32,000 nucleotides of DNA from an uncultured archaeon (GCA_964648855.1 CAZYLT010000014.1:2400-34399); one strand, 5' to 3'; shown: positions 13,816 through 30,121, counted from the first letter of the stretch. Made by a program: numbers and translations. The notes: a model not told the origin generated them from the sequence alone.

Positions 13816-13962
13816 GTTCCTTAGACTCCAAGGGTGTGACGGCACAGATGAAGGATGTATTAAAGCGATTCATTTGAACATCATTCCAATGGATTTTCAC
13901 GAATCGAAGTATTGATATACGGTTGTTCGAATCTCAAGCACAGACGAAAGAGGTTTTCAACT

Positions 13963-14426: not shown

Positions 14427-15068
14427 TCACTTCGTCAAAATAGACGCGATTTTGACGGCATCTTGGGCATCTTTGGCGTATCCATCTGCTTCTATAGAAT
14501 CCGCGAAGTCTTGAGTGATTGGACCGCCTCCAACCATGGTCTTTACTGGGATATTTCTTTTACGAATATCTTCGATTACCTTCTTCATTGAGTCCATGGA
14601 CGTAGTCATCAGTGCAGAAATCGCAACTATATCAGCTTCTTCCTTCAGAGCAACGTCACCGAAATTGCTCAGGGGAACATCTTCTCCTAGATTTATGACA
14701 TCGAAGCCTGCGGCGCCAAGCATAGATGCGACAAGATTTTTTCCAAGGGAATGGATATCTCCCTGGCATGTTCCGATAACAATAGTACCCTTGGCCTCAA
14801 TATCAGTATCCTTTAACTTGGGTTTAATAACGGTCATCGCAGCCTCGAACGCCCTTGCTGACATCAGCATTTCTGGTATGAAATACTCTCCATTTTGATA
14901 GAGATCTCCAACCTCTGACATGGCCTTGCTGCAGCCATCTATAACAATCTTGAAGGGCGGAATTTCTGAGTCTAACGCCCTTTCTGCTTCTCTGGCAGCT
15001 TCCTCTCGATTTCCCTCTACTATTGCTTCAATTAATGATTGCATGTTTGTTTTTGATGCCATTGTCAT
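14427..15068 (-). CDS. Methyltransferase cognate corrinoid protein (MtaC/MttC-like)
   Basis: Cap domain (GEYFIPEML), B12-binding DIHSLGKNLV, SALMTTSM, MVGGGP. Confidence 0.93.
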   Translation of the reverse strand: MTMASKTNMQSLIEAIVEGNREEAAREAERALDSEIPPFKIVIDGCSKAMSEVGDLYQNGEYFIPEMLMSARAFEAAMTVIKPKLKDTDIEAKGTIVIGTCQGDIHSLGKNLVASMLGAAGFDVINLGEDVPLSNFGDVALKEEADIVAISALMTTSMDSMKKVIEDIRKRNIPVKTMVGGGPITQDFADSIEADGYAKDAQDAVKIASILTK

Positions 15069-15169
15069 AATCCCTCTAGATGCGCACCTTTATCAAGTAT
15101 TCATTCACTGACGCTATTAAATCCAAGTTAAACCAATAATAAAGTGCTCGGTCTGGTAGGGAGAATCTA

Positions 15170-16180
15170 ATGACATCAACAGGATTGGAATTGATACGCA
15201 AAACACTTACACATCATGAACCAGAACGAGTTCCGATATTGCCTCTGGTTGGGCTGTTTGCTTCAAGAATTGCAAATGTACCAATCTCTGAAATGTTGCA
15301 TAATCCTGCCAAACAAAGCCAAGCCCTGTTGGAGGCTAGAGAGAAGTTTGGATATGACGGAGTCTTCAATGTCATGGATTTGACACTGGAGGCTGAAGCA
15401 TTAGGAGCAGAGGTAGTATTCGACAAGGGTGGATTTCCATATGTTAAGAAACACCCCTTGGATTCATTTGATGATTTGAATGCCTTAGAATTGCCTCCAA
15501 TTTCCAGTACAAGATTACAGGTTTTTGTGGAAAGTAGCAAGGAGCTGTTTCTTGAGATTGGCGATACGCAACTTGTCAGTAGCTACATAATTGGGCCATT
15601 CACTCTAGCTGGACATTTGTTTGGGATAGAGAAACTTCTAACTGCAACATTTGAAAATCCGGATGAAGTAGACGAGGCTATTGAGAATTGTGCTAGGATT
15701 TTGACGCCTTACCTGAGAGAGCTCCTTGACACAGGCTCACATAATATCGTGATCTTGGAACCCAGTGCAAGCAATAGCATCATTTCACCGGCATACTTTG
15801 AGAGATTTTCGGCACCACACATAGAACGTATGAATGGTATAATACATTCCGAAGACGCGTATGCAACTCTACATATCTGTGGAGATACTAACAGAATGAT
15901 GCGAGCAATGACTGATACAAATGCTGATGCCCTGAGTATTGATTCTGCAGTTGACTTACAAGCGGCGAAGAAAATTGTTGAAACGAAATCAACGCTCATT
16001 GGTAGTGTTGATACCACTCTTCTTCTGAAGGGCAGCATAGAGCAGGTGCGAAAAGCCGCGCTAACATGTATCAAAGATGCTGCGAAAGGCGGTGGATATA
16101 TACTGAGCAGTGGATGCGACTTTGCTATAGAAACACCCACGGATAATCTGTCCTCACTCGTTGAAACCGTATTTATCTAG
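15170..16180 (+). CDS. MtaA/CmuA-family (UroD superfamily) corrinoid methyltransferase
   Basis: EAEALGA, GPFTLA, EPSASNSIISP, Zn ligands LHICG...SSGCD. Confidence 0.85.
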   Translation: MTSTGLELIRKTLTHHEPERVPILPLVGLFASRIANVPISEMLHNPAKQSQALLEAREKFGYDGVFNVMDLTLEAEALGAEVVFDKGGFPYVKKHPLDSFDDLNALELPPISSTRLQVFVESSKELFLEIGDTQLVSSYIIGPFTLAGHLFGIEKLLTATFENPDEVDEAIENCARILTPYLRELLDTGSHNIVILEPSASNSIISPAYFERFSAPHIERMNGIIHSEDAYATLHICGDTNRMMRAMTDTNADALSIDSAVDLQAAKKIVETKSTLIGSVDTTLLLKGSIEQVRKAALTCIKDAAKGGGYILSSGCDFAIETPTDNLSSLVETVFI

Positions 16181-16229
16181 ATGAAAGATTTGGTGTCACG
16201 ATTGTTTGGTGATTGGGAGAGAGATATTA

Positions 16230-17855
16230 TTGGTTGATACGGAACTCATTCTGGAGCCTTCGGGTTTGAGAATAGTTGTTGACACTAATGAGACGATTAT
16301 GGATGCAATTCGAGCAGCTGGTCAATATTTGCCCTCTGATTGTGCAGGACGTGGAACCTGTGGGAAATGCAAAGTCGTGGTAAACCCCATACCTGAACCT
16401 AGCGCTTCGGACTTGGAGCTGCTCAGTATCTCCGACATAAGAGATGGTACGCGTCTAGCGTGTCAACACAAAGTTGGGACTGCCAAAAGAGTAGGGATTC
16501 CTAGTCAATCTATCAGTGCGCAGATTCTCACGGATTCGCTGATGTCTGAGCGTGTTGAAGCTGATCTCGGTGATACAAATGATATTGGTGTAGCCATAGA
16601 CATAGGAACAACAACTATTGTGTGCTATTTCATGAATATGGGTACAGGAATTCAGCTGGGTCAAAAGAGCGCAATTAACCCGCAAATTGTGCATGGTGAG
16701 GATGTCATGAGCCGTCTTACCTATGCGATTGAGAATCCAGAAGGGTCCACTGAACTTCAAGAACAAATTTGGTCAAAGGTAGAAGAGCTCGTTGATTCAT
16801 TTCTCGATGAAAGAGATATTGACCCTCGAAGCATCATAGCTGGGTCCGCTGTTGGCAACACAGCCATGCAATACTTAGCTCTAGGATATGATGTTCAGTC
16901 ACTAGCCATGGCACCCTATATTCCACATAAGAAAGAATCAACATTGGTCAGAGGTACTGAAATCGGATTGAGTCGGTTCTTCAATGTATCAATATACTTC
17001 TCGCCTGTTGTTGCGGGCTTTGTCGGTGGTGATGCGCTAGCCTTTATGTTATCTCGACGAATGGAGGGTTCTTCGGGCATTTCCATGGGCATCGATATAG
17101 GCACAAATGGAGAGATGTTGCTTTCAAAGCATGGAGAGATATTCTGCTGTTCAGCGGCAGCCGGTCCGGCTTTTGAAGGAGCAAGAATAAAAGATGGAAT
17201 GCGAGCGCAAAAAGGAGCTATAGAATATGCGAATATAAGAGATATTCAAAGCACTCCTGACATCGGTGTCATCGGAAATGTGCCACCTGAGGGCATATGC
17301 GGGTCCGGAGTTCTAGATATTGTGGCAGAACTGCGCAAGATAGGTCAAATTGATGAAACAGGGCGCATTCTTGAAGGACCAAGAGTGGATGATGTCAGCA
17401 AACACGGACGCATATATAGAGTCGTGAAGCTGGGCGAAGGGAACGCTAAGAGGGAAATCATTCTCACCCAGAAAGATGTACGACAAGTTCAGTTGGCAAA
17501 GGCCGCAATCAGAGCAGGAACTGAAATCCTCCTTTCCAAGGCTAGTTTGAATTCATCCGATATTGATACCCTGTTCTTAGCAGGTGCATTTGGAAATTAC
17601 ATGAGACCTGAAAGTGCACTCAATATTGGTTTACTACCACCAGTAAGCTCGGATAAGGTAATCCCGGTGGGAAATGCTGCTGGTGCGGGTGCAAAAAGAA
17701 TCTTGGTATCCTCAAGTGAAAGACAGCGAATAGAAATGGTAGCACAAGAAGCACATTATGTGGAATTGGCAAATGCTGACGGATTCAATTCTCTATTTGC
17801 GAGTTGTACACGTTTGACGTCTGAGATTGTTGACCTGGAGCTCAAGAGAAAATGA
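16230..17855 (+). CDS. ATP-dependent reductive activator of corrinoid proteins (RamA/RACo-like; 2Fe-2S + ASKHA)
   Basis: CAGRGTCGKC...RLAC ferredoxin domain, DIGTTT, GEDVMSR, DIGTNGE, AGPAFEG, GICGSG, LAGAFG, GNAA. Start approximate (ORF opens at 16206). Confidence 0.92.
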   Translation: MVDTELILEPSGLRIVVDTNETIMDAIRAAGQYLPSDCAGRGTCGKCKVVVNPIPEPSASDLELLSISDIRDGTRLACQHKVGTAKRVGIPSQSISAQILTDSLMSERVEADLGDTNDIGVAIDIGTTTIVCYFMNMGTGIQLGQKSAINPQIVHGEDVMSRLTYAIENPEGSTELQEQIWSKVEELVDSFLDERDIDPRSIIAGSAVGNTAMQYLALGYDVQSLAMAPYIPHKKESTLVRGTEIGLSRFFNVSIYFSPVVAGFVGGDALAFMLSRRMEGSSGISMGIDIGTNGEMLLSKHGEIFCCSAAAGPAFEGARIKDGMRAQKGAIEYANIRDIQSTPDIGVIGNVPPEGICGSGVLDIVAELRKIGQIDETGRILEGPRVDDVSKHGRIYRVVKLGEGNAKREIILTQKDVRQVQLAKAAIRAGTEILLSKASLNSSDIDTLFLAGAFGNYMRPESALNIGLLPPVSSDKVIPVGNAAGAGAKRILVSSSERQRIEMVAQEAHYVELANADGFNSLFASCTRLTSEIVDLELKRK

Positions 17856-17904
17856 ATAACACAGAAGTTTGCTACTCCTGCATCATTCTTTCAGGTCTCT
17901 CTTG

Positions 17905-18555
17905 TCACTTCTTGTGTTCCGCTATAACAGATAGAAATGCTTCCACATTCTCGGTTATCTTGCCGAAATCTCCAGCTGCAATGGCCTTTTTGTCCGTGAT
18001 AGAACTTCCAACACCCAATGCAAAGGCACCCGCATCCAATAGTGGTCCAGCTGTATCTATATTAACCCCGCCAGTCGGAATAACAGGAACTTGTGGAAGT
18101 GGTGCTTTTACTGCCTTGATATAAGAGGCACCTCCCAGATTCCCGCATGGGAATACCTTTACGGCATCTGCTCCCATGGTATACGCTTCAAGAATCTCCG
18201 TTGGCGTAACGGCGCCTGGAAAGACCGGCTTTGAGTATCTTCGAGTAGTTTCTATCAAATCCCTCGAATATATGGGACTAACAATGAACTCACTTCCAGC
18301 GAGAATAGCTTGTCGGGCAGTTGCACCATCTAGGACTGTCCCGGTTCCGATCAGCACCTTATCTCCCAATTTTTCAGACAATTCCTTGACAACATCTACT
18401 GCACCAGGAACACTGAATGTCACTTCAATTATTGAAACTCCTCCATCCAAGAATGCGTCAGCTACTCTTAGGGCGGTCTCACTAGAGTCTACTCTGATGA
18501 TAGGAATCAGGGCGGTCTTTTCTATCAAATTCATAGCTTCATGCTTATTCCACAC
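17905..18555 (-). CDS. eda: KDPG/KHG aldolase (bacterial-type class I)
   Basis: IPIIR, IEVT, GTGTV, FIVSP, TPTEI, VKVFP (Schiff-base Lys), PTGGV. Confidence 0.93.
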   Translation of the reverse strand: MWNKHEAMNLIEKTALIPIIRVDSSETALRVADAFLDGGVSIIEVTFSVPGAVDVVKELSEKLGDKVLIGTGTVLDGATARQAILAGSEFIVSPIYSRDLIETTRRYSKPVFPGAVTPTEILEAYTMGADAVKVFPCGNLGGASYIKAVKAPLPQVPVIPTGGVNIDTAGPLLDAGAFALGVGSSITDKKAIAAGDFGKITENVEAFLSVIAEHKK

Positions 18556-18567
18556 GTCTAACCACCT

Positions 18568-19563
18568 CTACCTCTGGATTCTAAGCCCTCTCTCATAGCC
18601 TTCAACGAGTTTCTCGATTTCTTCTTTATTCACGAAAGCAAGGTCGCCTGGTATTGTTTGCTTGAAGGCTGAGAATGCTGAGCCAAAGTTAACCGCTTGT
18701 TGCAAGTCTTCGAGTTCCAAATATCCATAAATGAAACCGGCACTGCAAGAGTCGCCGCCGCCAAGACGATCTATGACTTCTATATCGTATGTCGGACTGC
18801 GATAGACGTTTCCATCCGCGTAAGCAAAGACGGACCATTTATTCTCAAGAACGGATGGCGTTTCACGAAGTGTGATTAGTACTACTTCGAAACCAAACTT
18901 GTCCGTCAATTTTGACGCTACTTCCTCATAGTTCTCGCCTTCGATTCCGTAAACGACTTTGGTGTCCTCTTCAGTGGTAATGAGGATGTCAATATATTCT
19001 GATGCAGGTTCAGTAAATTTCCTTGCCTCTTTTGGAGTCCAGAGCTTGCCTCTATAATTGACATCGTAAGACACCTTGACACCGTGTTTTCTGGCTGCTT
19101 TGAAAACCTCCATGGTTGTATCTGCACAGCCGTTACTGAGGGCAGGAGTTATTCCGCTTGTATGGAACAACCGTGTTCCATCTAGGAAATCATCCCAGGG
19201 TACCTCTCCTGGTTTAATTTTGCTAATTGCTGAATGAGCCCTATCATAGATGACTCGATTTGTCCGAGGTGCCGCACCAAACTCAACGAAGTAAACTCCA
19301 CATCGACTATCCGGGTCCCAAAGGATGTGAGAGGTATCCACATCATGCATTCTTGCCTGATTTCTGATGAAATGGCCGATTGAATTATCACCAAGCTTTG
19401 TAACATATGCAGAATTCAATCCTAGTCGGGAACATGCGACTGCAACGTTCATCTCAGCTCCTCCTGCATTAGCATCATAGCTATGTGTCTGCTCAAACCG
19501 TCTGAAATCGGGGGGAGATAGCCTTAGCATGACTTCTCCGAAGGTAACTACATCAAAATTCAT
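18568..19563 (-). CDS. kdgK: 2-keto-3-deoxygluconate kinase (PfkB family)
   Basis: FGEVMLRLSPP, GGAEMNVA, YDRAHSA, SGITPAL, DVNYRGKLW, DRLGGGDS; directly upstream of eda. Confidence 0.9.
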   Translation of the reverse strand: MNFDVVTFGEVMLRLSPPDFRRFEQTHSYDANAGGAEMNVAVACSRLGLNSAYVTKLGDNSIGHFIRNQARMHDVDTSHILWDPDSRCGVYFVEFGAAPRTNRVIYDRAHSAISKIKPGEVPWDDFLDGTRLFHTSGITPALSNGCADTTMEVFKAARKHGVKVSYDVNYRGKLWTPKEARKFTEPASEYIDILITTEEDTKVVYGIEGENYEEVASKLTDKFGFEVVLITLRETPSVLENKWSVFAYADGNVYRSPTYDIEVIDRLGGGDSCSAGFIYGYLELEDLQQAVNFGSAFSAFKQTIPGDLAFVNKEEIEKLVEGYERGLRIQR

Positions 19564-19586
19564 CTTTCACACTCACATTTTCTCTC

Positions 19587-19607
19587 TTGAATTTAAGTTG
19601 AATTTAA
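19587..19607. promoter_or_regulatory. 10-bp direct repeat TTGAATTTAA-G-TTGAATTTAA upstream of kdgK, possible operator
   Basis: Exact repeat with 11-bp period in the GRE-kdgK intergenic region. Confidence 0.35.
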
Positions 19608-19651
19608 TATTGGAGCACTGAATGTTAAACCTGTCGTAAGCCCCATATTGG

Positions 19652-21997
19652 TTAGTGAGCAGAAGAAAACTCAGTTCTCGCGATTATTTCATCCTGCACG
19701 AAGGGATCTAGTTCAATGAAATATGCACTATATCCCGCCACTCGAACAATGAGATTGCGATGCTGAAGGGGGTGTACCTTCGCATCCTCCAAAGTGGCCC
19801 TATCTACAACATTGAATTGGACATGTAATCCATTCATCTTGAAATACCCTTCAACGAGTCCGATGAATTTTTCTCTTGACTTTTTGCTGCTAAACATATC
19901 TGGAGTGAATTTCATATTATACAGGGTTCCATTATAGCAGCGCTGATGATCCAACCGAGCAACCGATTTCATTGCAGCAGTGGGTCCATTAACATCTCGA
20001 TTCTGAGTTGGTGATACACCATCCGAAAGCATGATGCCGGCCTTTCTCCCATCTGGGGTGGCTCCTAAGACCTCACCTTGAGGAATATACATTGAAACCG
20101 AGAATAGCGCCCCATGATATGACCCGTCACGCGTTGTCATACGACTTTGGATTGCATCACAGAATGCGACACCTGTATCTCGTGCTAGAAAATCTACTCT
20201 TTCAATATCATTTCCATACTTGCATGGGTCATTTTCAAGAAGAATTCTTAGTTCTTCGTAGCCCTCATAATCTGCATGCAATGCCTCTAACAGATTATCC
20301 ATCGTTGTCGTTTTCTGCTCAAAAACGTGCTTTCTAATCATCTCAAGCGAATCAGCAACTATTGCGACCCCAACCCCCATAATGCCGCCGGAGTTATATA
20401 GCGCTCCACCATCCTGCATAGTCCTACCGCTTTCAAGGCAGCCCTCTAGTAGAGACGAAATGAATGGGGTCGGCTTGTTTTGAGAGAGGATTCCTGCCGC
20501 AACTCGGTCCGCCTGTGTGAGCAATTCAATAGTATAATCGATTTGCTCTTCGTAGGCATCCCATAGCTGCTCAAAGGATGTAAATTCTGTGACATTACCA
20601 GTTTCCAATCCTACTTTCTCGCCGCTAATTGGATCAATTCCATTATTGAGAGTTATCTCTAATATTTTTGGTAGATTGACATAGCCAATATTCGGTCTTG
20701 GATCCGACTTCCCAGCCATTATTGGCTCCACGCAACCGAGGATTGAGTAATCATGTGCCTCTGAAGGATCCGTTCCCTTGTCGGTCATCAGGGGAATTAT
20801 GACTTCATCATTGAATATTCCTGGCATGCCCAAGCCCTTAGATACAACCTCGACAACCTCCCTCATGAACCTGTCAGGAGTACCCTCATGCCATCTGAAC
20901 GAAACTGTAGGTTGCGTGACTCGAATATTCTTGGTTGCCTCCAAAACCAGACTGGTCAAATCATTGCAGGCATTATTGCCATCAGCATCTTGTCCCCCAA
21001 TTGTCAAATTCTGAAACATGGGATGTCCCGCAAAAGCGACGCTGTAGTACTCGTTTCTTAGTTTGATTAGTGAAGTGAACTTGATCCATAGCATTTCAAG
21101 AAGCTCGAGGGCTTGGTCTCTGGTGAGTTTGCCTGACCTCATATCTTGCTGAAAATATGGAAACATGTATTGGTCAAAACGGCCCGTGGATATAGAATGA
21201 CCGTTTGACTCCGTCTGTACAAGCAGATGAATAAACCAGAACGACTGAAGTGCCTCATGAAATGATTCTGCAGGATATTCTGGAACCCTTGCGCATATGC
21301 GTGAGATTTCCTCCAGATCTGCTTTTCTTTGTAGGTCTGATTCTGCATCTGCAAGACTTGCCGCAAGTTTGGAGAATCTCTTTGCGAATGCAGTTACCGC
21401 CTCCAACTGAGTAATCACTGCTTCATAGAATTTCCTCTCCTCCTCAGAGGTAGAATCCTGAAACTTATCTTTTGTATCAGATATAATGCTCGCTATTCCT
21501 TTCCCAAGTACTGTAGGATAATCCACAATAACATGGCCGATCCCAGTCCCTGGTGCACCTATTGTGAACAAACCCGCCTTGGACGCTCTCTGAGAATCCA
21601 TTGGCATTTTGCTCCGGGCTATTTCCGCAGTACTCTTTCCATTCCAGTATTCGAAGACTTCTCTGAGAATATCTTTATCATCTTCTCCTATCTGAAATGG
21701 TTCTGTTCTACGCGCATCGAACCTATCCAGCTCCTCGTTGAGCCATTCCCAGCTATACTCTGGGAATATCTGACAAGAACGAGGTGTTGGGCCCATGTTC
21801 CCCACAATCAATTCCTCTGGCTCTATCCGAATAGTCATGTCTTCGAGAACCTTAGCAAACGCATTAGCCAATCGAATCTTAATAGGTTCCGACTCATGAG
21901 ACCTCAAGTAATCGGTGAAAATGGATGCTCGTTCGCTTGAGATGGTGGGTTCTGCAGCAAGCATTCTGTCTTTGATTCGTTGCGTTCTAGAGGTCAT
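19652..21997 (-). CDS. Glycyl radical enzyme, diol dehydratase/PFL2-like eliminase class, substrate unknown
   Basis: Gly loop RVAGYSAYF, Cys loop ILGCVEP (single Cys, not the PFL CC pair), GHVIVDY, ESNGHSISTGRFDQY, ATPDGR; 781 aa. Confidence 0.93.
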   Translation of the reverse strand: MTSRTQRIKDRMLAAEPTISSERASIFTDYLRSHESEPIKIRLANAFAKVLEDMTIRIEPEELIVGNMGPTPRSCQIFPEYSWEWLNEELDRFDARRTEPFQIGEDDKDILREVFEYWNGKSTAEIARSKMPMDSQRASKAGLFTIGAPGTGIGHVIVDYPTVLGKGIASIISDTKDKFQDSTSEEERKFYEAVITQLEAVTAFAKRFSKLAASLADAESDLQRKADLEEISRICARVPEYPAESFHEALQSFWFIHLLVQTESNGHSISTGRFDQYMFPYFQQDMRSGKLTRDQALELLEMLWIKFTSLIKLRNEYYSVAFAGHPMFQNLTIGGQDADGNNACNDLTSLVLEATKNIRVTQPTVSFRWHEGTPDRFMREVVEVVSKGLGMPGIFNDEVIIPLMTDKGTDPSEAHDYSILGCVEPIMAGKSDPRPNIGYVNLPKILEITLNNGIDPISGEKVGLETGNVTEFTSFEQLWDAYEEQIDYTIELLTQADRVAAGILSQNKPTPFISSLLEGCLESGRTMQDGGALYNSGGIMGVGVAIVADSLEMIRKHVFEQKTTTMDNLLEALHADYEGYEELRILLENDPCKYGNDIERVDFLARDTGVAFCDAIQSRMTTRDGSYHGALFSVSMYIPQGEVLGATPDGRKAGIMLSDGVSPTQNRDVNGPTAAMKSVARLDHQRCYNGTLYNMKFTPDMFSSKKSREKFIGLVEGYFKMNGLHVQFNVVDRATLEDAKVHPLQHRNLIVRVAGYSAYFIELDPFVQDEIIARTEFSSAH

Positions 21998-22039
21998 CTT
22001 GATGTATTACACCTCATTCTAGATTATTTTTTGCATCCA

Positions 22040-23209
22040 TCACTTTGGTCTTCTTAGTAGCTTTGGAAGGAAGGTGTCAAGCCTTTGGAGTGCCTCTTCA
22101 ATGCTCTCAGTTGACATTGCATAACATAATCTAAGGAATCCTTCACCAAAGTGTCCGAATGCAGACCCATGAACAGTAGCAACATTTACCTCATTGAGGA
22201 TTCTCATAACCAATTCGAAGGTTTCCATGCCAAATGCAGAAACATCTGGAAATACATAAAACGCTCCACCTGGCGGTTCCAAATCAACTCCCTCGATTTG
22301 CTGTAAACCCTTGACCATAATATCTCGTCGTTCTCTGAAGGTATCCAGCATCTCCTTGACGCAATCTTGCGGGCCCTCGACAGCTTCAGCCGCTGCTTTT
22401 TGCGAGATGGAGGTCGGCATTGCAATCACATGTTCTTGCAGTTTTGTCATTGCACCAATTACCTCAGACGGCCCGGTACAGATACTAATTCGCCATCCGG
22501 TCATAGCATATGTCTTAGACAGCGAGAACAGAGATACTACTCGTTCTTTCATTCCGGGCAATGAGCCGATGAACAGCGGTTTCTCATTATCATAGCGGAA
22601 TTTTTCGTAGGCCTCGTCTGAGAGAATGTAGAAATCCTTCTCGATTGCAAGTTCTGCGATTTTCTTGAGTTCTTCATTGGAGATAACTCCGCCTGTTGGA
22701 TTGTTTGGGGAGTTCAAGACCAACATCTTGGTCCTATCTGTGACCAACTTCCTAACTCCCTCAGCAGTCACCCCAAAACCATGTTCCTTCTTGAGTTGTA
22801 GTGGAATCGCTTTTCCTTCTGCCAATTTCACATGGGCAAAATGGCTGACGAATCCAGGATCTGGATATATTACTTCATCACCAGGTTCAACAAGAACAAG
22901 GTTTGCAAGCACAAGTGCACCCATGCCGCCAGCGGTCGCCATAATCTCGCTAACGGGGTCAGCGTCAATGTCATTATCTCGCTTTAGCTTCCTGGCGAAT
23001 GATTCTCTTACGTCCATGAAACCTGCATTGTGGGTGTATTTGGTAAAACCATCATCGATTGCCTGCTTTGCTGCTTCTTTGATGTGATTTGGAGTATCGA
23101 AATCCGGGATTCCAACTGTCAGGTCAATAACGTCATCTCGTCCTAGAATCATGTTGTAGATTTTTCTTATCTCACTGGCTGGAACAAACTGGTTTCTTTC
23201 GGCGAGCAT
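22040..23209 (-). CDS. PLP-dependent aminotransferase class I/II (AspAT-like)
   Basis: GIPDF, NSPNNPTG, SDEAY, SLSKTYAMTGWR, GAFY, LRLCYA. Confidence 0.94.
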   Translation of the reverse strand: MLAERNQFVPASEIRKIYNMILGRDDVIDLTVGIPDFDTPNHIKEAAKQAIDDGFTKYTHNAGFMDVRESFARKLKRDNDIDADPVSEIMATAGGMGALVLANLVLVEPGDEVIYPDPGFVSHFAHVKLAEGKAIPLQLKKEHGFGVTAEGVRKLVTDRTKMLVLNSPNNPTGGVISNEELKKIAELAIEKDFYILSDEAYEKFRYDNEKPLFIGSLPGMKERVVSLFSLSKTYAMTGWRISICTGPSEVIGAMTKLQEHVIAMPTSISQKAAAEAVEGPQDCVKEMLDTFRERRDIMVKGLQQIEGVDLEPPGGAFYVFPDVSAFGMETFELVMRILNEVNVATVHGSAFGHFGEGFLRLCYAMSTESIEEALQRLDTFLPKLLRRPK

Positions 23210-23344
23210 TATAATGCACCACTGATGTTTTGAAGTTTAATCTGCAATTTATATCCTTTTAAACAACCAAAGAATACTTTAACTTCTAACACATCCCGAT
23301 TCTAAATGAATTTAAGAAAGCATGTTCGTTGAATGGTGAATACT

Positions 23345-23815
23345 ATGACCGAACCATCAGCAGATGAAGTAAGAAAGGTGAATATGGCAACATTGGCTAG
23401 CGCTCATGCAGTCTATGTTGAGGCAATGAGAGACCATTGTGGAAAAGAAGGTTTGGAGGCACTAAGAAAAGCAAATCTACAACACGGACTTGAATTGGGT
23501 GAGGCTGGTATTGAGAGTGGTGGGTTAAGAAAAGGAGAACCGAAATCACTTTTTGACTTTTTTGAGGCAGCACATCCTTATTTTGGATTTGATTTGGAGC
23601 TGATAGATTATAGTGACGATATGGTTGAGATGAGGGTTCAATCCTGTCCTTGGATTGACACATTCAAAGCAGAAGGCGCACAAGAAGACATCTGTCATTG
23701 GGTATGTGCTATGGATGACGGGATAGGTCAGGCAGTTGACCCAGATTTGAGATTGTCAATTCCCAAATGCATGATGCGTGGCGATGACTATTGTGTTTAT
23801 CTCTGGAAGAAATGA
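23345..23815 (+). CDS. L-2-amino-thiazoline-4-carboxylate hydrolase-like / V4R-fold Cys-rich protein
   Basis: VQSCPW...ICHWVCAMD...KCMMRGDDYC. GGTGA RBS before ATG 23345. Confidence 0.72.
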   Translation: MTEPSADEVRKVNMATLASAHAVYVEAMRDHCGKEGLEALRKANLQHGLELGEAGIESGGLRKGEPKSLFDFFEAAHPYFGFDLELIDYSDDMVEMRVQSCPWIDTFKAEGAQEDICHWVCAMDDGIGQAVDPDLRLSIPKCMMRGDDYCVYLWKK

Positions 23816-23825
23816 GTGATTGACC

Positions 23826-24491
23826 ATGGTAAACAAAGATTTGATAATAGACAGAACACTGAAACTCTATGTGGCTGCGGTATCAGATGCAGCTGACGAA
23901 GCTGGGCTAAGCCCGGTCTGTATGGATTGGGAAATAAAGCCCGTAACGAACAACTATCGCATGGCAGGCTTTGCAAGAACTGGCAAACTTGTTCGTACAC
24001 CTCCAAATAGGCCGTATGACGAGGGGCAGCTGGACTTATTCATGAGCTTGGCTACAAAGGCGGAGCAATGGGACATTGTATGCATTACCTCAAGTGGTGC
24101 AACAGATTGTTCAGTCTGGGGTCAGGTGCTAACTAGAATTGGCATCCCAAAGGGGCTTAATGGAGCAGTTGTAGACGGAACCTCAAGAGATATCGAGGAT
24201 ATCAACAACATGAATTTTCCAGTATTTGCTCGTGGGCGTCACCCAGGAACTATGAGAGGTCGTTTGGATATGGAGTCTGTTGGCGAACCAATTACTTGTG
24301 GTGGCGTGAAAGTTGCGATGGGTGACTTGATTTTTGCTGATGGTGACGGAGTTGTCGTTATTGCAAAAGACCGAATCGAAGAGGTTCTCGCAGCAGCAGA
24401 AGAGGTTGTTTCCACTGATGTATGGTGGGCGGACAAGCTGGATGAGGGTGAAGACCCTCATGAGATGCATAAAGAGAAGCCAATCCCCTAA
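23826..24491 (+). CDS. RraA family protein / HMG-CHA aldolase-like
   Basis: VSDAAD, SVWGQVL, GAVVDGTSRD, FPVFARG, GDLIFADGDGVVVI. Confidence 0.88.
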   Translation: MVNKDLIIDRTLKLYVAAVSDAADEAGLSPVCMDWEIKPVTNNYRMAGFARTGKLVRTPPNRPYDEGQLDLFMSLATKAEQWDIVCITSSGATDCSVWGQVLTRIGIPKGLNGAVVDGTSRDIEDINNMNFPVFARGRHPGTMRGRLDMESVGEPITCGGVKVAMGDLIFADGDGVVVIAKDRIEEVLAAAEEVVSTDVWWADKLDEGEDPHEMHKEKPIP

Positions 24492-25615
24492 CTAATGGGA
24501 TACTGCCCTTTCTCTGCCGCATAGTCATACATTTCAAGTATCTTCTCCGGAGTCGAGTCAGGCTGTATATTATGAGCGGGCGCCAGAATGTATCCACCGC
24601 CGGGTGCAAATGCTCTCAATCTAGTATCGATCTCCTTTCTTAGGTCATCAATCTTCCCAACCGAGGCCATAGCCTGCTGCAAATCAATTCCTCCATGAAA
24701 GGTTAATCTGTCGCCGTATTTCTGCTTGAGAGTTTCTGAGTCCATACCTTCTGCCAAGGGCTGCACCGGGTTAAGAATATCAACTTCTACATCAATCAAA
24801 TCTTCTATCATGGGCTCAATGGCTCCACAACTGTGATACAAAATCTTGACGTGAGGGGCTCTCCTGTGGATATCTGAGTAGATTTTCTTATGTTTCGGTT
24901 TGATCTTGTCGCGATACATCTTGGGACTCATTATCAGTCCGTTCTGATGACCTAGGTCATCGCCCACCTGCACGATATCGAGATAATCCCCAACTGCATC
25001 GAGAAAAACGGCATTCATGTCTAGAGCAAGCTCCATTGACTTGTTCATCATGGCTTCAGCCAATTCTGGACGAGATATTAGGTCTATGAGAAACTTGTCA
25101 AACCCTCTCATGTAGTGAGCGCAGACTTCGAATACGCCCCATGGACCTCCCACCATTCCTGTGACCGCATAGTCTGTTTCTTCATGAAGATATTTCGCCC
25201 ATTCTACTACACCATCTAATCTTGAAGGGTCTTGAGGATCAAGCCACTCATAGTCCTCTACTTCTTGCACCTCGGTGAAATCAGCCCACGGAAAGTGGAC
25301 TATCTCCCAATACTCACCAATCCATTTCCCCCTGCATCCGAATTCGGTTTCAACGCTTCCATCTGGGTATTCCTTTGGCTTGAAGTCAGCAGCAGATTTC
25401 ATGTATACTCTCCGAAAGTCAATACTGAGTCTTTGTAGCATTTCTTCAGAGATTTGCCAGACACTCATTATACCCCATTCTTGGGTTTCCGGGGCATCAA
25501 TCCCCAAGTAGTCCCTAAGACTTTCATATGCCTGCGGAGTAATCCACAGGTCAAGTGGTACTCTGTCGGGTTCTTCGTGGGACACAGCCTTATGGAATCG
25601 CTCTCTTGGTTTCAT
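24488..25615 (-). CDS. Uroporphyrinogen decarboxylase superfamily protein (putative corrinoid methyltransferase)
   Basis: HEEPDRVP, MRGFDKFL, GDDLGHQNG, YHSCG, NPVQP, GGGYILAPAHNIQ. Confidence 0.85.
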   Translation of the reverse strand: MKPRERFHKAVSHEEPDRVPLDLWITPQAYESLRDYLGIDAPETQEWGIMSVWQISEEMLQRLSIDFRRVYMKSAADFKPKEYPDGSVETEFGCRGKWIGEYWEIVHFPWADFTEVQEVEDYEWLDPQDPSRLDGVVEWAKYLHEETDYAVTGMVGGPWGVFEVCAHYMRGFDKFLIDLISRPELAEAMMNKSMELALDMNAVFLDAVGDYLDIVQVGDDLGHQNGLIMSPKMYRDKIKPKHKKIYSDIHRRAPHVKILYHSCGAIEPMIEDLIDVEVDILNPVQPLAEGMDSETLKQKYGDRLTFHGGIDLQQAMASVGKIDDLRKEIDTRLRAFAPGGGYILAPAHNIQPDSTPEKILEMYDYAAEKGQYPIS

Positions 25616-25697
25616 GATTGGTCCACGAATAGGAGCGTGGATTTTGGGTATTTTAATCTCTTCTTAGATACGTAAGGTCTGGACCGTTCGAAAAACC

Positions 25698-25746
25698 TTC
25701 ATCATTCCGTTCGATATAGATTGAAGCAATATATCGACGAGATGAA
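25698..25746. repeat. Long imperfect inverted repeat in a divergent intergenic region
   Basis: TTCATC...CGTTCGATATAGATTG AAG CAATATATCGACG A GATGAA; core TCGATATA/TATATCGA. Confidence 0.5.
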
Positions 25747-25835
25747 TTCCGAGTACGCCTGACTCCTTGGATGTTTGTAGCAATGCTTTTCAGTTTGTGT
25801 TTCATTACATAAAGTCAAAGACTAGGTGAAGTAAA

Positions 25836-26051
25836 TTGACTGAAGAAAGCGTGTACAAATTTATCGAACTTGTTGGCGTTAGTGAGAAGAGCTGGGAGCA
25901 TGCGATGCAGAATGCTATTCAGAAGGCATCAGAAAGCCTTAGAGACCTTCGAGTAGCAGAAGTCATCCGGCAAGATGTTAGGTTAGACGGTAATAAGATC
26001 ATTGAATACCGGGTTCGAATCAAGCTAAGCTTCAAGTATGAGAAGGAGTAG
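25836..26051 (+). CDS. Dodecin (flavin-binding protein)
   Basis: VYKFIELVGVSEKSWEHAMQNAIQKASESLRDL...YRVRIKLSFKYE. GGTGA RBS. Confidence 0.93.
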   Translation: MTEESVYKFIELVGVSEKSWEHAMQNAIQKASESLRDLRVAEVIRQDVRLDGNKIIEYRVRIKLSFKYEKE

Positions 26052-26084
26052 AGGAGTACAGTCCTCTCTCAACTCTCTTTTTTT
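26050..26084 (+). terminator. Putative terminator after dodecin
   Basis: AGAGGA-gtacag-TCCTCT hairpin followed by a CT-rich tract and T7. Confidence 0.55.
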
Positions 26085-26214
26085 GCGAAAACCACAGAGA
26101 ATCGCCGCTTCCCATATTAAGCTTGTATTAAAGAAACTTCGCGACCAGAGAGCTTAATTAGCATTTATTATACTCTTGAATTCAGAACCAAAGAATCTGG
26201 AGCAGCGGTTGACA

Positions 26215-27594
26215 ATGGATATCCAAAAAATGACAAGTCGTCTTGAAGACATTGTTGGGTCAAAGCGAGTCACTGACAAGGAATTCGATATCGTGGCATA
26301 TAGTCGTGATTTAAGCCCTGCAAAACAGAAGATGGCTACTCATATAGTGATGCCTGAAACAAAAGAAGAGATTCAAGAGATTCTCAGGATTGCTAACAAA
26401 CATGATATCCCGATTTATCTACGGGGTGGTGGAACCTCACATTGGGATGCGTTTCTTCCTCAAGACCCGGGTATCATGCTTGATTTAGCGCTGATGAATC
26501 GGATAATAGAAATCGAGGAAAGAGACCTTACTGTCACCGTTCAGCCAAATTGCACTTGGGCAAAACTGGATGCCGCGCTTCAGGAAAAGGGGCTAACTTA
26601 TCTTTGCAGTGAAGCTGGAGGTCCCGCTATGACCGTTGGTGGGTCGGTGATGAAGGCTGGCGGAGGGCCACGTGGCACTGCCAAGTTTGGTTTCCACGGA
26701 CATCGTGATATCGTCACGCTTGAGATGGTTCTTCCCAATGGAGATGTAGTACATACGGGCTCTGCGGCGTGGCCAAGTGCAGGGAAGTTCAAGAGACAGT
26801 GTCTAGGTCCAGACCTTGCTGGCATGTTCATTGGAGCAGAGGGTATTCTCGGGGTTTGCACAGAGTTAACACTCCGAATTAGACCATCTTCAGATTATGA
26901 AGAGCGCATCATGGCAGTCATTCCAACACTTGATGAAGCAATTGAATTAGGGCATTTTGTCAATCGGCTAGTTGGAGATGAATACCTGCAGGGCTTCTAT
27001 TTATGGGTTGAACCAACAGACCCTGACACGTTTATTGTGATGGCAGATATTTTCGCGTATGAAAAGAAGATAATGGAGTTTCGAAAGAAGAAACTCATAG
27101 AGAAAATCGAGGACCTGGGAGGGAAAATTGGCGACCCGGCTCCTGCAAATGACTATTTCGATAGAATTCTCACAGGACTAACAGACATCTTTGCAACTGG
27201 AGTTTGGCATTTCTTTGGCTCCGGCTCTTGCAGAATTGACGATATTGGCTTTCTGTACAAGGTATGGAAGGAAGAGCTAATTGAAAAGAGAGGCTATACA
27301 AAGGCTGGATTTGGGGGTCAGGTCCTCCCAAGAGACTGGTTGGCTTTTATGGTCACTAACTACCAAGAGCCAGAGGAATGGGACCAACTCGTCGAGATGG
27401 CTGATGAAATCAACGAGATGATTCTCAATGGGCCTGTTGTCCCTTATGGAATTGGCGGAAGAGATGGCCTAAGATCGTTCGTGGCTGAGCGAGATACAGG
27501 ATACTACCGTCTCCTGAAGACTCTGAAAAGAACACTTGATCCCAAGAATATTCTACAGCGTGGGATTTTCATTGCAGAGGAGGAATTAGAATGA
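26215..27594 (+). CDS. FAD-binding oxidoreductase (GlcD/D-lactate dehydrogenase-like, VAO/PCMH family)
   Basis: RGGGTS, MNRIIEI, TVGG, LEMVLPNG, FIGAEGILGVCTE, LDPKNIL. Start at ATG 26215 (ORF opens at 26176). Confidence 0.88.
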   Translation: MDIQKMTSRLEDIVGSKRVTDKEFDIVAYSRDLSPAKQKMATHIVMPETKEEIQEILRIANKHDIPIYLRGGGTSHWDAFLPQDPGIMLDLALMNRIIEIEERDLTVTVQPNCTWAKLDAALQEKGLTYLCSEAGGPAMTVGGSVMKAGGGPRGTAKFGFHGHRDIVTLEMVLPNGDVVHTGSAAWPSAGKFKRQCLGPDLAGMFIGAEGILGVCTELTLRIRPSSDYEERIMAVIPTLDEAIELGHFVNRLVGDEYLQGFYLWVEPTDPDTFIVMADIFAYEKKIMEFRKKKLIEKIEDLGGKIGDPAPANDYFDRILTGLTDIFATGVWHFFGSGSCRIDDIGFLYKVWKEELIEKRGYTKAGFGGQVLPRDWLAFMVTNYQEPEEWDQLVEMADEINEMILNGPVVPYGIGGRDGLRSFVAERDTGYYRLLKTLKRTLDPKNILQRGIFIAEEELE

Positions 27595-28787
27595 ATATCA
27601 GCGACTACAAGGACATGATTTACGCCTGTGGTAGATGTGAGTTTTGTCGTGGATATGATTTCGACGAGCGATGTCCCGAAATCTACACTCAAACTTGGGA
27701 ATCATCAACTGCTAGAGGGAGGATGGCAATAGCCAGAGCCATACTAGAGGGTAAATTGGACTACACTGAAGACCTTGCTGAGCGAATATTTGGCTGCTTT
27801 ATGTGTGGTAGATGCAAATACGAGTGCAAGAAGGCCGCCCAGATAGACATCATCGCAGTGACGAAGGCCATGAGGAAGGACTTTGTTGAACAGGGAGTCG
27901 CTATTCCTGAAGGCGGCGAAAATATGGCTGATACTGCTCAAGAAACAGGGAACATCTTTGCGGACACACCAACTGTACATACCCAATGGGCGGAAGGACT
28001 TGAGTTCACCGAAGGTTCAGGAACCCTCTTTTATCCTGGCTGCTTAGCCAGTCACCGCTTTAAGGAAAAGACCAACATCCTTGTCCGTGTGCTCCAAGAG
28101 GCGGGCTATGAGCTTGACTTTCTTGGCGAAGACCAGCGATGTTGTGGCACACCGTACTGGATAACTGGGAAGATGGAGCACGCAAAAGAATGGGCAGAGG
28201 ATTACCTGAACAATCTACAGGAACGTGGTGTTGAAACAATCATTACTCCGTGCCCCAGTTGCTTCCGAGCATTCGATGAGATCTATCCAGAATTGTTGGG
28301 AATGGATGAGTTTCCAATAAAAGTTCGTCACACAAGCGAGGTTCTGGCAGAGATTGTGAGAGAAGGCAAACTGGACCTGAAGAAACCAGTCGATGTTGTC
28401 GTTACCTATCACGACCCCTGCGAGATTGGACGTTATCGAGATATCTATGAACCCCCCCGGGAAGTCATTGAGGCAATCCCCGGTGTTGATTTCCGTGAGA
28501 TGCCGCGCAATAGAGAACAGGCATTTTGTTGTGGCGGTGGCGGCGGAGTCAAGATAATGTATGAGGATAACTCGCAGATGGCTGCTAGAAGACGTTTAGA
28601 AGATATCGAAACCACAGAGGCTACGATTATTGCGACAGTCTGTCCAGCATGTGAGATGAATCTCACCCATGCAGTGTACGAGGCAGATGCTGAGATGCGG
28701 GTGCTTGACATTGCTGAACTCATGGCTGTATCAGCCGGAATCGTTGATGAGGAGATTCTGGATCCCTACTACATTCCTGAGGATTGA
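27591..28787 (+). CDS. Fe-S oxidoreductase, GlcF/HdrD-like (two [4Fe-4S] motifs + two CCG domains)
   Basis: CGRCEFC...CP, CFMCGRCKYEC, YPGC, CCG, CPSC, HDPC, CCGGGGG, CPAC. ATGA overlap with the upstream gene. Confidence 0.92.
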   Translation: MNISDYKDMIYACGRCEFCRGYDFDERCPEIYTQTWESSTARGRMAIARAILEGKLDYTEDLAERIFGCFMCGRCKYECKKAAQIDIIAVTKAMRKDFVEQGVAIPEGGENMADTAQETGNIFADTPTVHTQWAEGLEFTEGSGTLFYPGCLASHRFKEKTNILVRVLQEAGYELDFLGEDQRCCGTPYWITGKMEHAKEWAEDYLNNLQERGVETIITPCPSCFRAFDEIYPELLGMDEFPIKVRHTSEVLAEIVREGKLDLKKPVDVVVTYHDPCEIGRYRDIYEPPREVIEAIPGVDFREMPRNREQAFCCGGGGGVKIMYEDNSQMAARRRLEDIETTEATIIATVCPACEMNLTHAVYEADAEMRVLDIAELMAVSAGIVDEEILDPYYIPED

Positions 28788-28843: not shown

Positions 28844-29140
28844 TTAAAATGAGCCGCCAACAGCAGCTATCATGAAGACAATCATATCGCCATCACGAAG
28901 ATTTGTGTGAAGTCCATTATGTGCCACAATGTTACTACCATTTACGATAACGATGGCATCACGCCTCAGGGTTTGATTCTCATGGTCTTCCAAGAACACT
29001 TCAAATCTCGGGCCATAAGCCTGATGAAGCTGGTCTACCAATGTGCCCACTGTCGCATTCTCACTTATTTGAACGGGGAATTTGTCGTGCTCCTCTGATT
29101 TTAGACCACGATTCATGAGTTTCACATAGACCTGGCTCAT
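28844..29140 (-). CDS. MoaD/ThiS/SAMP-like ubiquitin-fold protein ending GG-SF
   Basis: ATVGTLVDQL...AIVIVNG...LRDGDMIVFMIAAVGGSF. Confidence 0.85.
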   Translation of the reverse strand: MSQVYVKLMNRGLKSEEHDKFPVQISENATVGTLVDQLHQAYGPRFEVFLEDHENQTLRRDAIVIVNGSNIVAHNGLHTNLRDGDMIVFMIAAVGGSF

Positions 29141-29338
29141 ACCTTGCACCTTTCAAGTATATTACACGCTTAAGATAATATTAAAGTGACGATAAAGCAC
29201 CAAATTTAGAATTTTGCAAGACTTTACTATAATTAATGTCGTCTGGAAAAGCTTTTTACCTGTACTAAAGCCTGCAAAGGTACACTCAAGTGGCATCAAA
29301 TCTTAGATGGGCAATGAAAGAACAGGTGGCATCCCGAA

Positions 29339-30121
29339 TTGACAGAGAACAATGGAAGAACTACTCTACGAAAATGGCTAGCCCAACATGCAAAGGAAGA
29401 GCCGATACACTATCGGAACATTGCAGACGCTCTAGACCGTACACCAGAGTCAGTTTCAGCGTCCCTGTCTATAGAAAAGAAGCAAGCTGAACAGGATGAA
29501 CGACCGCCTTATTTTGTTCGTGTTGCTCCAGGTCTCTACAGATATAACGAGGTCTGTGAGGGTGCCATTGATGAGGACAAGATCAGTGAGGTTCGCGAAC
29601 GGGCAAATCAATTCAATCTTCGGGCACGGGAACAACTGTCCTATGCCATTGCTGAGCTCGATCTTGAGGCATTCGAAAATCTCACAAAAGTGTTGCTGAC
29701 CAATATACGGGCTCACACTGAACCCAAATCAGACGGTGGATTCCTTCAGGTGCATGAGCGACGGAATGGCACCACGGTCATCATGACTAGTGCATGGTGG
29801 GACGATCGTGGAAAAGCCCCTGTTGTATATTATGCTAGGAAGTGCGACCTGGATGAAGAGATTGGCAAAGAGACTATTCTTGAGATCAGAGGGGACCTTC
29901 CTACCTATGGAGCCAATCAGGGTGTGCTCCTATCCAACGGGATCTGCAATGAGGAGGCTCGAAGAGTTGCTGTACAAGAAAACCGGTCGGTGCCCCCAAT
30001 CCATATCATGGATAGGGACATTATTCTCAATATCCTGTTTGAGAGCAGAACAGGCATTCGAGAGGTCCCGGTGAATGTGTACCTCATCGACAAGGAGTTC
30101 TTCGACAATATCTCCAGCTGA
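29339..30121 (+). CDS. HARE-HTH-like domain + Mrr-like restriction endonuclease-fold domain (catalytic motif degenerate)
   Basis: TPESVSASLS...FVRVAPGLY; AFENLTKVLL, SDGG, IGKETILEIRG, QGVLLSNG, PIHIMD, IDKEFF. Confidence 0.72.
   Translation: MTENNGRTTLRKWLAQHAKEEPIHYRNIADALDRTPESVSASLSIEKKQAEQDERPPYFVRVAPGLYRYNEVCEGAIDEDKISEVRERANQFNLRAREQLSYAIAELDLEAFENLTKVLLTNIRAHTEPKSDGGFLQVHERRNGTTVIMTSAWWDDRGKAPVVYYARKCDLDEEIGKETILEIRGDLPTYGANQGVLLSNGICNEEARRVAVQENRSVPPIHIMDRDIILNILFESRTGIREVPVNVYLIDKEFFDNISS

Follow-up and report, generated by a model that had tools for sequence, protein, structure and literature searches.

An accessory gene block of Thorarchaeia places a new clade of glycyl radical enzyme among sugar-acid and methyl-transfer genes

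We analysed a 32,000-nucleotide stretch of DNA (the window; contig C14:2400-34399, GCA_964648855.1 CAZYLT010000014.1:2400-34399) from a 3.1-Mb, 94.6% complete metagenome-assembled genome (MAG) of Thorarchaeia (Asgard archaea), labelled G000 below. The stretch holds most of an accessory Thorarchaeia gene block of about 14 kb, which runs from an aldolase to an APC-superfamily permease. The block includes a glycyl radical enzyme (GRE) of 781 amino acids (19652-21997, minus strand), enzymes of sugar-acid breakdown, and a divergent URO-D protein (24488-25615, minus strand; Pfam URO-D 109 bits) that is a candidate substrate-side methyltransferase (MT1). On sequence grounds the GRE is assigned to a new clade of predicted 1,2-eliminases confined to Thorarchaeia. 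We propose, with doubt and belief almost in balance, that the block serves one shared catabolic route in which methyl transfer is coupled with the GRE route.

Gene identities in the window were assigned by Pfam and NCBIfam profile searches. Conservation was followed in about 20 kb around the GRE orthologue, fetched in 40 species-level genomes, onto which the window proteins were mapped by tblastn; a gene was counted at a locus if a match of at least 50% identity lay near the GRE orthologue. Across these 40 genomes of many genera, gene order and orientation were kept around the GRE: aldolase (Eda), kinase (KdgK), GRE and aminotransferase, then an ATC-hydrolase-like and an RraA-like gene, MT1, a GlcD/GlcF-like pair, and finally ThiS-like, Mrr-like and APC permease genes. 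Near-GRE matches were found for the aldolase in 37, the kinase in 39 and the aminotransferase in 38 loci, for the ATC-hydrolase-like gene in 31, the RraA-like gene in 34 and MT1 in 36, and for the GlcD-like, GlcF-like and ThiS-like genes in 28, 27 and 23. The ThiS, Mrr and APC genes follow in the same order and orientation, and the counts drop toward the edge of the fetched stretches. MT1, accompanied by the ATC-hydrolase-like and RraA-like genes, belongs to the block as a constant part. Many GRE orthologues were flagged for internal stops; two of them (L129, L147) were checked, and in both the protein is simply two residues shorter, the reported stop being its normal terminator.

Occurrence of the GRE orthologue and MT1 was counted over 87 Thorarchaeia genomes. 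The GRE orthologue was present in 61; by our reading both genes were present in about 60, neither in 22, and the two were discordant in 5 incomplete MAGs. Five Thorarchaeia genomes of five genera (93-98% complete) served as a block-less comparison set, and in these none of the GRE orthologue, MT1, KdgK (E<=1e-20), the window-type GlcD, the Mrr-like gene (E<=1e-10) or the window-type APC permease (E<=1e-60) was found. Since all six genes are missing together, the stretch from aldolase to APC permease behaves as one unit of presence or absence; because the genes are linked, such joint presence and absence is by itself no proof of a shared function. The left flank beyond the aldolase is broken in at least four ways among related loci. 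In most genera the aldolase is followed by a second, same-strand GlcD/GlcF-like pair (L120 4487-7057 and 23 other loci; on another contig, C26:7761-10387, in the window genome) and by an inositol-phosphate-synthase-like gene. In genus g9 and the window genus, genes for B-box proteins, EamA and thioredoxin occupy this flank instead.

The GRE (PFL-like 715 bits, Gly_radical 114 bits) keeps the radical motif VRVAGYS with Gly755, a C-terminal glycyl radical signature of the RVxG type, and has its thiyl cysteine and general base in a GCVEP loop (Cys422, Glu424) of the C-x-E type. At 692 and 683 bits, glycerol dehydratase (1r8w) and diol dehydratase (5i2a) align with it over the full length, and Cys422, Glu424, the histidine of a GIGHV motif and His267-Ser268 align with C433, E435, H164 and S282 of glycerol dehydratase; the conserved His and His-Ser are the residues that handle the leaving hydroxyl. 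The ligands of the C3 hydroxyl of glycerol, Asp447, Tyr339 and Tyr640, are invariantly replaced by Asn436, Phe328 and Phe632. The GWHD loop, which the fetched bacterial relatives keep, reads PRPN in the Thorarchaeia clade and carries a new invariant Arg434, and the Tyr-rich loop of the dehydratases consists of small residues in the window GRE. C422, E424, H267, S268, G755, R434, N436, F328 and F632 are invariant in the 40 Thorarchaeia orthologues. The nearest relatives, at 67-72% identity, all come from Thorarchaeota MAGs, and the next is from a Pseudodesulfovibrio MAG at 46%. A 2026 review records no archaeal PFL-like GRE with a characterised function and lists no GRE of such a context (PMC13450708).

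The GRE gene lies in an operon of four minus-strand genes, aminotransferase, GRE, KdgK and Eda, with gaps of 43, 89 and 13 bases. The first gene encodes a class I aminotransferase (22040-23209; Aminotran_1_2 240.6 bits; 318 bits to 1dju, the aromatic aminotransferase of P. horikoshii). The third encodes a PfkB kinase resembling 2-keto-3-deoxygluconate (KDG) kinase (18568-19563; 281 bits to 2afb, the T. maritima KDG kinase TM0067), and the fourth, last in the window genus, a KDPG (2-keto-3-deoxy-6-phosphogluconate)/KHG (2-keto-4-hydroxyglutarate) aldolase (17905-18555; Pfam Aldolase 156 bits; TIGR01182 185 bits, cut-off 156). The adjacent pair is homologous to characterised KdgK and Eda, the functions predicted here. 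An open reading frame of 90 amino acids (17852-18124, plus strand) overlaps the end of the RACo gene described below and lies antisense to the aldolase gene. It matched no family, and its seeming conservation reflects that of the aldolase across from it, so it is probably no gene. The orthologue of the aminotransferase that stands alone in G012 (L203) has Pirin and phosphorylase neighbours, which are uninformative.

On an ordinary reading of this operon, the GRE would act as pyruvate formate-lyase or as a B12-independent dehydratase of glycerol or propanediol, with the kinase and aldolase forming a general Entner-Doudoroff branch. The best solved relatives of the GRE are indeed glycerol and diol dehydratases, and NCBIfam places it solely in the broad PFL2/glycerol dehydratase family TIGR01774. 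Pyruvate formate-lyase was rejected, however, because the active-site loop has a single Cys rather than Cys-Cys and TIGR01255 (PFL1) gives 163 bits, far below its cut-off of 994; B12-independent glycerol dehydratase was rejected on the invariant replacement of Asp447/Tyr339/Tyr640 and of GWHD. KdgK is absent from the block-less Thorarchaeia genomes, which argues that it is not part of a housekeeping Entner-Doudoroff branch. We regard the ordinary reading as hardly credible.

No GRE activase is encoded in the window, and a single one was found in the genome (TIGR02494, 307 bits, cut-off 174; C3:13457-14317), where it adjoins a second GRE paralogue of 35% identity (G000:C3:11496-14317; L081, L116). 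With two GREs and one activase, which sits beside the other paralogue, the window GRE must be activated in trans. In genus g13 (L206, L208, L210, L213) orthologues of the EamA and thioredoxin genes (56-66% identity) adjoin a different GRE paralogue (35-36%), and recombination between GRE paralogues might have broken the synteny on the aldolase's left side.

The methyl-transfer side of the block begins with MT1, which is very remote from solved proteins: MtaA gave 25 bits, and no other solved relative was found. The family conserves H261-x-C263...H348 at the zinc-ligand positions of MtaA. MT1s of the URO-D superfamily are established, namely MtvB, OdmB, VdmB, MtoB and CdmB (PMC13222342), and the window protein marks a deep URO-D branch, which probably acts as a corrinoid methyltransferase on the substrate side and is widespread in Asgard archaea. 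Five more genomes, from four genera (G016, G010, G028, G030, G019), have MT1 orthologues or recent copies clustered with a corrinoid protein and a methyltransferase acting on the acceptor side (MT2). MT1 directly adjoins MT2 in G010, G028 and G030; in G016 the order is corrinoid protein, MT2, RACo and MT1, with the one RACo gene between the two methyltransferases, and in G019 the distance between MT1 and the cassette is about 4 kb. Counted by loci, at least nine others combine MT1 with MT2 and corrinoid proteins. In other Asgard lineages relatives of MT1 (34-54% identity) adjoin corrinoid proteins, once together with an APC permease and an AGXT-type aminotransferase.

In the window, the likely partners of MT1 lie at the other end of the GRE operon, as a cassette at 14427-17855. 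It comprises a corrinoid (B12-binding) protein that would carry the methyl group (14427-15068, minus strand), an MtaA/CmuA-like URO-D methyltransferase, the MT2, which would pass the methyl group from methyl-cobamide to an acceptor (15170-16180, plus strand; Pfam URO-D 227 bits), and a RACo-type reductive activase of the corrinoid protein (16206-17855, plus strand). The corrinoid protein has both the B12-binding domain (88.8 bits) and the cap domain (B12-binding_2, 77.1 bits), its D104-x-H106-x-x-G109 motif is invariant in 17 relatives, and it reaches 202.6 bits against TIGR02370, below the cut-off of 215. MT2 has MtaA (4ay7) as its best solved relative and keeps the H-x-C...C zinc motif; it lies under the NCBIfam subfamily cut-offs (TIGR01463 174.7 bits against 235; 183 against 244), so the assignment is at family level only. 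The activase has the Fer2, Raco_middle and RACo_C_ter domains of ATP-dependent reductive activases.

MT1 and MT2 are the only MtaA-like methyltransferases in the genome, besides one weak URO-D-like match on C19, and a search of the window genome for MtaB and MttB found neither. A complex model of MT1 with the window corrinoid protein scored 0.78, compared with 0.00 for the best of three controls; the runs shared at least 85% of their contacts, and pLDDT (model confidence) for the partner was at least 79. Of 80 solved complexes 58 attained that mark, as did 2 of 110 mismatched pairs; these counts are rough here, as our own alignments were used. The pass may reflect likeness to solved methyltransferase-corrinoid complexes. 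Taken with the clustering in other genomes, MT1 and the cassette are most likely the halves of one methyl-transfer system.

The position of the cassette is peculiar to the window genus. Its place between thioredoxin and aldolase is shared by the window and the sole other genome of the genus (L119, 78-84% identity) alone; the syntenic loci of genus g9 and L002 have no cassette at that position, and of 40 other loci 1 had it at the block. Genes like MT2 (E<=1e-20) occur in 38 of the 87 genomes, nearly always on contigs other than that of the block. In genus g8 (G019) a non-orthologous cassette in the order RACo, MT2 and corrinoid protein stands between MT1 and GlcD; it has 41-42% identity to the window cassette and a different gene order. 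The three genes thus form a mobile cassette, which the window genus inserted at the border of the block opposite to that used in G019. The neighbourhood of a RACo-corrinoid protein pair in another Thorarchaeia genome (L111) shows no methyltransferase partner.

A further copy of MT1 is found in genus g10, where it clusters with the ATC-hydrolase-like gene, MT2, an MttB-family gene, a corrinoid protein and an APC permease (L202, G030:C10 9200-16000; L205, G028:C59 7100-14000). The ATC-hydrolase-like gene thus stays beside MT1 copies in a cluster separate from the GRE block. The MT1 copies have 71-73% identity to the window MT1, and the MttB-family protein is of the non-Pyl type, at 444 bits to the trimethylamine methyltransferase model, below its cut-off. 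The cluster hints at a stepwise demethylation of a quaternary amine. APC permeases accompany clusters of MT1 and corrinoid protein at L183 as well as at L202 and L205.

Several observations weigh against a single route. In over half of the genomes with MT1, no window-type MT2 was seen. In genus g2 the GRE stands alone beside a thermosome gene, and the aminotransferase-KdgK-Eda operon and an MT1-MT2-corrinoid protein cluster lie elsewhere; in G016 MT1 and the cassette are on a contig separate from the GRE operon. The second MT1 copy of genus g10, with MttB, corrinoid protein and APC permease, has no GRE, and relatives of MT1 outside Thorarchaeia never have GRE, KdgK or Eda as neighbours. Paralogues of the GRE lie near methyl-transfer genes in 2 of 21 loci (L215, with a corrinoid protein, and L171), an adjacency that we treat as coincidental. 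The block also includes ThiS-like and Mrr-like genes with no obvious catabolic role, so simple descent may account for part of the conserved adjacency. KDG can already be made from aldonates by polar dehydratases, which leaves the need for radical chemistry unexplained. Finally, acetyl-CoA synthase (CdhC, PF03598) was not detected in the 94.6%-complete genome.

An alternative is that a sugar-acid-type operon and a methylotrophy module are neighbours by descent, with unrelated functions and different substrates, and that GlcD/GlcF, ThiS and Mrr are passengers. We judge this possible, though on the doubtful side. The separation of the modules in genus g2 and G016 fits it, as do the company of MT1 elsewhere (only corrinoid proteins, APC permeases, MttB and aminotransferases), the lack of a cassette at the block in 38 of 40 fetched GRE loci, the separate G019 fetch counted, and the conservation of the ThiS-like and Mrr-like genes alongside. 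To our knowledge, no chemistry joins KDG formation to demethylation. Mere co-inheritance, however, accords poorly with the breakpoints, which lie outside the core from aldolase to MT1 in most genera despite repeated rearrangement of the flanks, with the presence or absence of the whole block as one unit, and with the recruitment of corrinoid cassettes to the block twice, independently. Both modules are, moreover, retained in the same genomes where they are unlinked. Around the solitary GRE of genus g2 (L007/L153, L008; L226, L227), excised from the aminotransferase/KdgK interval, genes for pyruvate:ferredoxin oxidoreductase and fumarase/succinate dehydrogenase lie beyond the thermosome gene, and in G010 several of these genus g2 genes carry in-frame stops.

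A paralogous Thorarchaeia cluster also counts against mere co-inheritance. At L171 (G044:C305, 1-7600) it consists of CbiQ, GlcD-like, Fer4, CCG, aminotransferase, URO-D, corrinoid protein and MtaA-like MT2 genes; its genes adjoin one another at L171, L181 and L182 and are less tightly grouped at L180, and it has no kinase or aldolase. Because this cluster recurs, methyl transfer, an aminotransferase and a GlcD/GlcF-type dehydrogenase form a repeated combination, and it may be a second system for methylated 2-amino or 2-hydroxy acids.

An earlier note on this DNA had described a single catabolic island, with the GRE and Entner-Doudoroff genes flanked on both sides by methyl-transfer genes and with transporters nearby. 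All the genes it named were recovered at their positions by Pfam and NCBIfam; the cassette and MT1 do flank the GRE operon, and an EamA/DMT transporter (12880-13845, minus strand) and the APC permease (30331-31881, plus strand) are close by. The island itself holds for the genes from aldolase to APC permease, which are co-inherited by the evidence of the 40 loci and the five block-less genomes, and fails for the cassette, which assorts independently. Independent assortment of sub-clusters, which the note took as grounds for giving up the idea, was seen for the cassette, for the split in genus g2 and for MT1 outside Thorarchaeia.

The note had also suggested that the GRE expels methanol or a methylamine, which the corrinoid module captures; the group expelled could be methanol from a 3-O-methyl-aldonate, methanethiol or a methylamine. 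The GRE eliminases CutC and IslA do expel groups from the carbon beside the radical (PMC13450708). The His/Cys/His site of MT1 at the zinc-ligand positions of MtaA would suit this reading. Zinc-dependent URO-D methyltransferases handle methylthiols, MtsA being one example, and elimination of methanol from a 3-O-methyl-aldonate would yield KDG directly. Against it, most genomes with the GRE operon and MT1 have no MT2 cassette, methyl groups drawn from thioethers or amines transfer poorly to pterins, and the Asp position that binds trimethylammonium in CutC is not evident in the window GRE, where the loop reads PRPN. Capture of free methanol or methylamine needs MtaB or MttB, neither of which was found in the genome, and we consider expulsion very unlikely.

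In the shared route that we favour tentatively, a methylated, hydroxylated amino or 2-hydroxy acid would be imported by the APC permease and demethylated. MT1 would load the methyl group onto the corrinoid protein's Co(I), from which MT2 would hand it to a one-carbon (C1) carrier pathway; cobalt that became oxidised would be re-reduced by RACo. The aminotransferase and the GlcD/GlcF-like dehydrogenase could interconvert the 2-amino, 2-oxo and 2-hydroxy forms. The GRE would abstract the carbinol hydrogen, and a neighbouring hydroxyl or alkoxy group would be eliminated to give a 2-keto-3-deoxy acid, with Arg434 possibly holding a carboxylate or phosphate. KdgK would phosphorylate this acid and Eda would cleave the product to pyruvate and glyceraldehyde-3-phosphate. 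The enzyme classes and partners are supported by homology, from which we infer the mechanism. Glucosaminate, 3-O-methyl-aldonates, 4-O-methylglucuronate, muramic-acid-type 3-O-ethers and sulfonium compounds, S-methylmethionine among them, were considered as substrates, and computation favours none of them.

Enzymes that could carry the methyl group further are present in the genome (Mch 264 bits, MTHFR 116 bits). Together with the failure to find CdhC, they make oxidation of the methyl group more likely than acetogenesis, and the genome may be without the carbonyl branch of the Wood-Ljungdahl pathway. The window also encodes an F420-type, luciferase-like oxidoreductase (998-1945, plus strand) that weakly resembles Mer. 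In L180 and L205 homologues occur a few kb away from MT2 or MT1 genes, so a link to methyl-group oxidation is possible.

A more specific version of the shared route is unlikely. In it the Thorarchaeia GRE would be a new C-O lyase forming a 2-keto-3-deoxy sugar acid from a 2-hydroxy or 2-amino acid, with a hydroxyl or alkoxy group lost in a radical beta-elimination, and the same block would demethylate the substrate through a zinc/URO-D MT1 of a kind not yet described, into C1 metabolism. If this were true, methylated or 3-O-substituted (amino-)sugar acids would be broken down anaerobically by way of the block, and a first function would be assigned to an archaeal PFL-like GRE. If the modules prove coupled, close relatives of eukaryotes would have a new way to break down methylated organic matter anaerobically in sediments. 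As it stands, an archaeal PFL-like GRE has a defined genetic context in about 60 Asgard genomes, formed by aminotransferase, KDG kinase and KDPG aldolase genes, and its distinct invariant active-site signature means that it can be tested directly.

The remaining genes of the block lie between the GRE operon and the APC permease. An ATC_hydrolase-family small protein (23333-23815, plus strand; Pfam PF14196, 62 bits) precedes the RraA-like protein (23820-24491, plus strand; Pfam RraA-like 103 bits), which has an aldolase/decarboxylase fold; an ESM Atlas search with the former gave a family name only. To the right of MT1 lie the GlcD-like subunit of a flavin adenine dinucleotide (FAD)-linked oxidoreductase (26176-27594, plus strand; FAD_binding_4 107.7 bits) and a CCG/4Fe-4S subunit resembling HdrD, TfrB and GlcF (27591-28787, plus strand; CCG 135 bits, Fer4_8). 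The earlier note had read the RraA-like protein as a candidate second pyruvate-type aldolase (RraA/HMG) and the pair as GlcD/GlcF-like. The Pfam RraA-like family match stands, but a LigK-type HMG/CHA aldolase (4-hydroxy-4-methyl-2-oxoglutarate/4-carboxy-4-hydroxy-2-oxoadipate) was rejected at equivalog level (TIGR02798 74 bits against a cut-off of 304). Both subunits of the pair are present; glycolate oxidase was rejected (glcD 120.6 against 568 bits, GlcF 55.9 against 333, no GlcE gene). TfrB is the best NCBIfam match of the iron-sulfur (FeS) subunit (177 bits, below cut-off), and the pair is better named an FAD/FeS-CCG oxidoreductase.

Between MT1 and the GlcD-like gene lies a flavin-binding dodecin of 71 amino acids (25836-26051, plus strand; Pfam Dodecin 86.7 bits), found in this interval only in the window genus, a genus-specific insert with two paralogues elsewhere in the genome; the gene fell under the threshold of the ORF list. 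Beyond the oxidoreductase pair follow a ThiS/MoaD-like small protein (28844-29149, minus strand; Pfam ThiS), an Mrr-fold protein (29339-30121, plus strand; Mrr_cat 23.7 bits), which is possibly the regulator of the block, and the APC permease (Pfam AA_permease), likely the importer of its substrate. The EamA/DMT transporter (Pfam EamA 146.9 bits) is a flank gene outside the conserved block, found near the GRE in 3 of the 40 loci. A search of the intergenic regions of the island for a shared regulatory motif gave AT-rich, promoter-like words only, none of them convincing.

Among known systems, the nearest precedent by analogy for corrinoid demethylation coupled with a GRE dehydratase is the bacterial catabolism of hydroxyproline-betaine and N-methyl-4-hydroxyproline, in which, as far as the review summarises it, an MttB-family demethylase and corrinoid protein act before the GRE dehydratases HpyG and HpzG (Jiang et al. 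2024, via PMC13450708). As summarised there, that system shares with the window corrinoid demethylation and a GRE C-O eliminase with a C-x-E loop, which there act in a single anaerobic pathway for an amino acid that is both methylated and hydroxylated, although the coupling is only proposed here. It differs, by the same summary, in its MttB-type demethylase, where the window has a divergent URO-D protein in an archaeal host, and in the downstream genes, for which the window has an aminotransferase, a KDG kinase and a KDPG aldolase. The window GRE is also nearer to the glycerol and diol dehydratases (692 bits) than to HpyG 8id1 (508) or HpzG 8iof (446).

On the methyl-transfer side, the Mto O-demethylase system MtoB/MtoC/MtoA/MtoD of Methermicoccus shengliensis and Archaeoglobus fulgidus (PMC8630106, PMC8359953) has the same four components, a URO-D-type MT1, a corrinoid protein, an MtaA-like MT2 and a RACo-type activase, and offers a non-methanogenic archaeal setting. 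In contrast to Mto, the window MT1 is very remote and lies 8 kb from its partners amid ATC-hydrolase-like, RraA-like, aminotransferase and GRE genes, and nothing at the window locus points to methoxylated aromatics.

On the radical side, the glycerol and diol dehydratases 1r8w and 5i2a share the glycyl radical motif, the thiyl Cys, the base Glu and the His/Ser for the migrating hydroxyl; the window GRE departs from them by D447N, Y339F, Y640F and GWHD to PRPN, and by having no adjacent activase, microcompartment or aldehyde-handling genes. E. coli YbiW and PflD are GRE C-O lyases that act on 1,5-anhydrohexitol-6-phosphates ahead of an aldolase (PMC13450708), and the logic of phosphorylation, C-O cleavage by a GRE and an aldolase step yielding glyceraldehyde-3-phosphate is alike. 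They belong, however, to a different GRE clade (483-514 bits); the window has an Eda aldolase and a co-operonic aminotransferase, and isomerase-type chemistry is not indicated. The lower branch of the hexuronate and semi-phosphorylative Entner-Doudoroff pathways has a homologous, adjacent kinase/aldolase pair. Unlike those pathways, the window has no gluconate, mannonate or altronate dehydratase alongside, a GRE and an aminotransferase instead, and a KdgK/Eda pair confined to block-bearing genomes. Membership in any of these families does not fit; the GRE and MT1 each belong to an uncharacterised clade, and the combination of genes is likewise uncharacterised.

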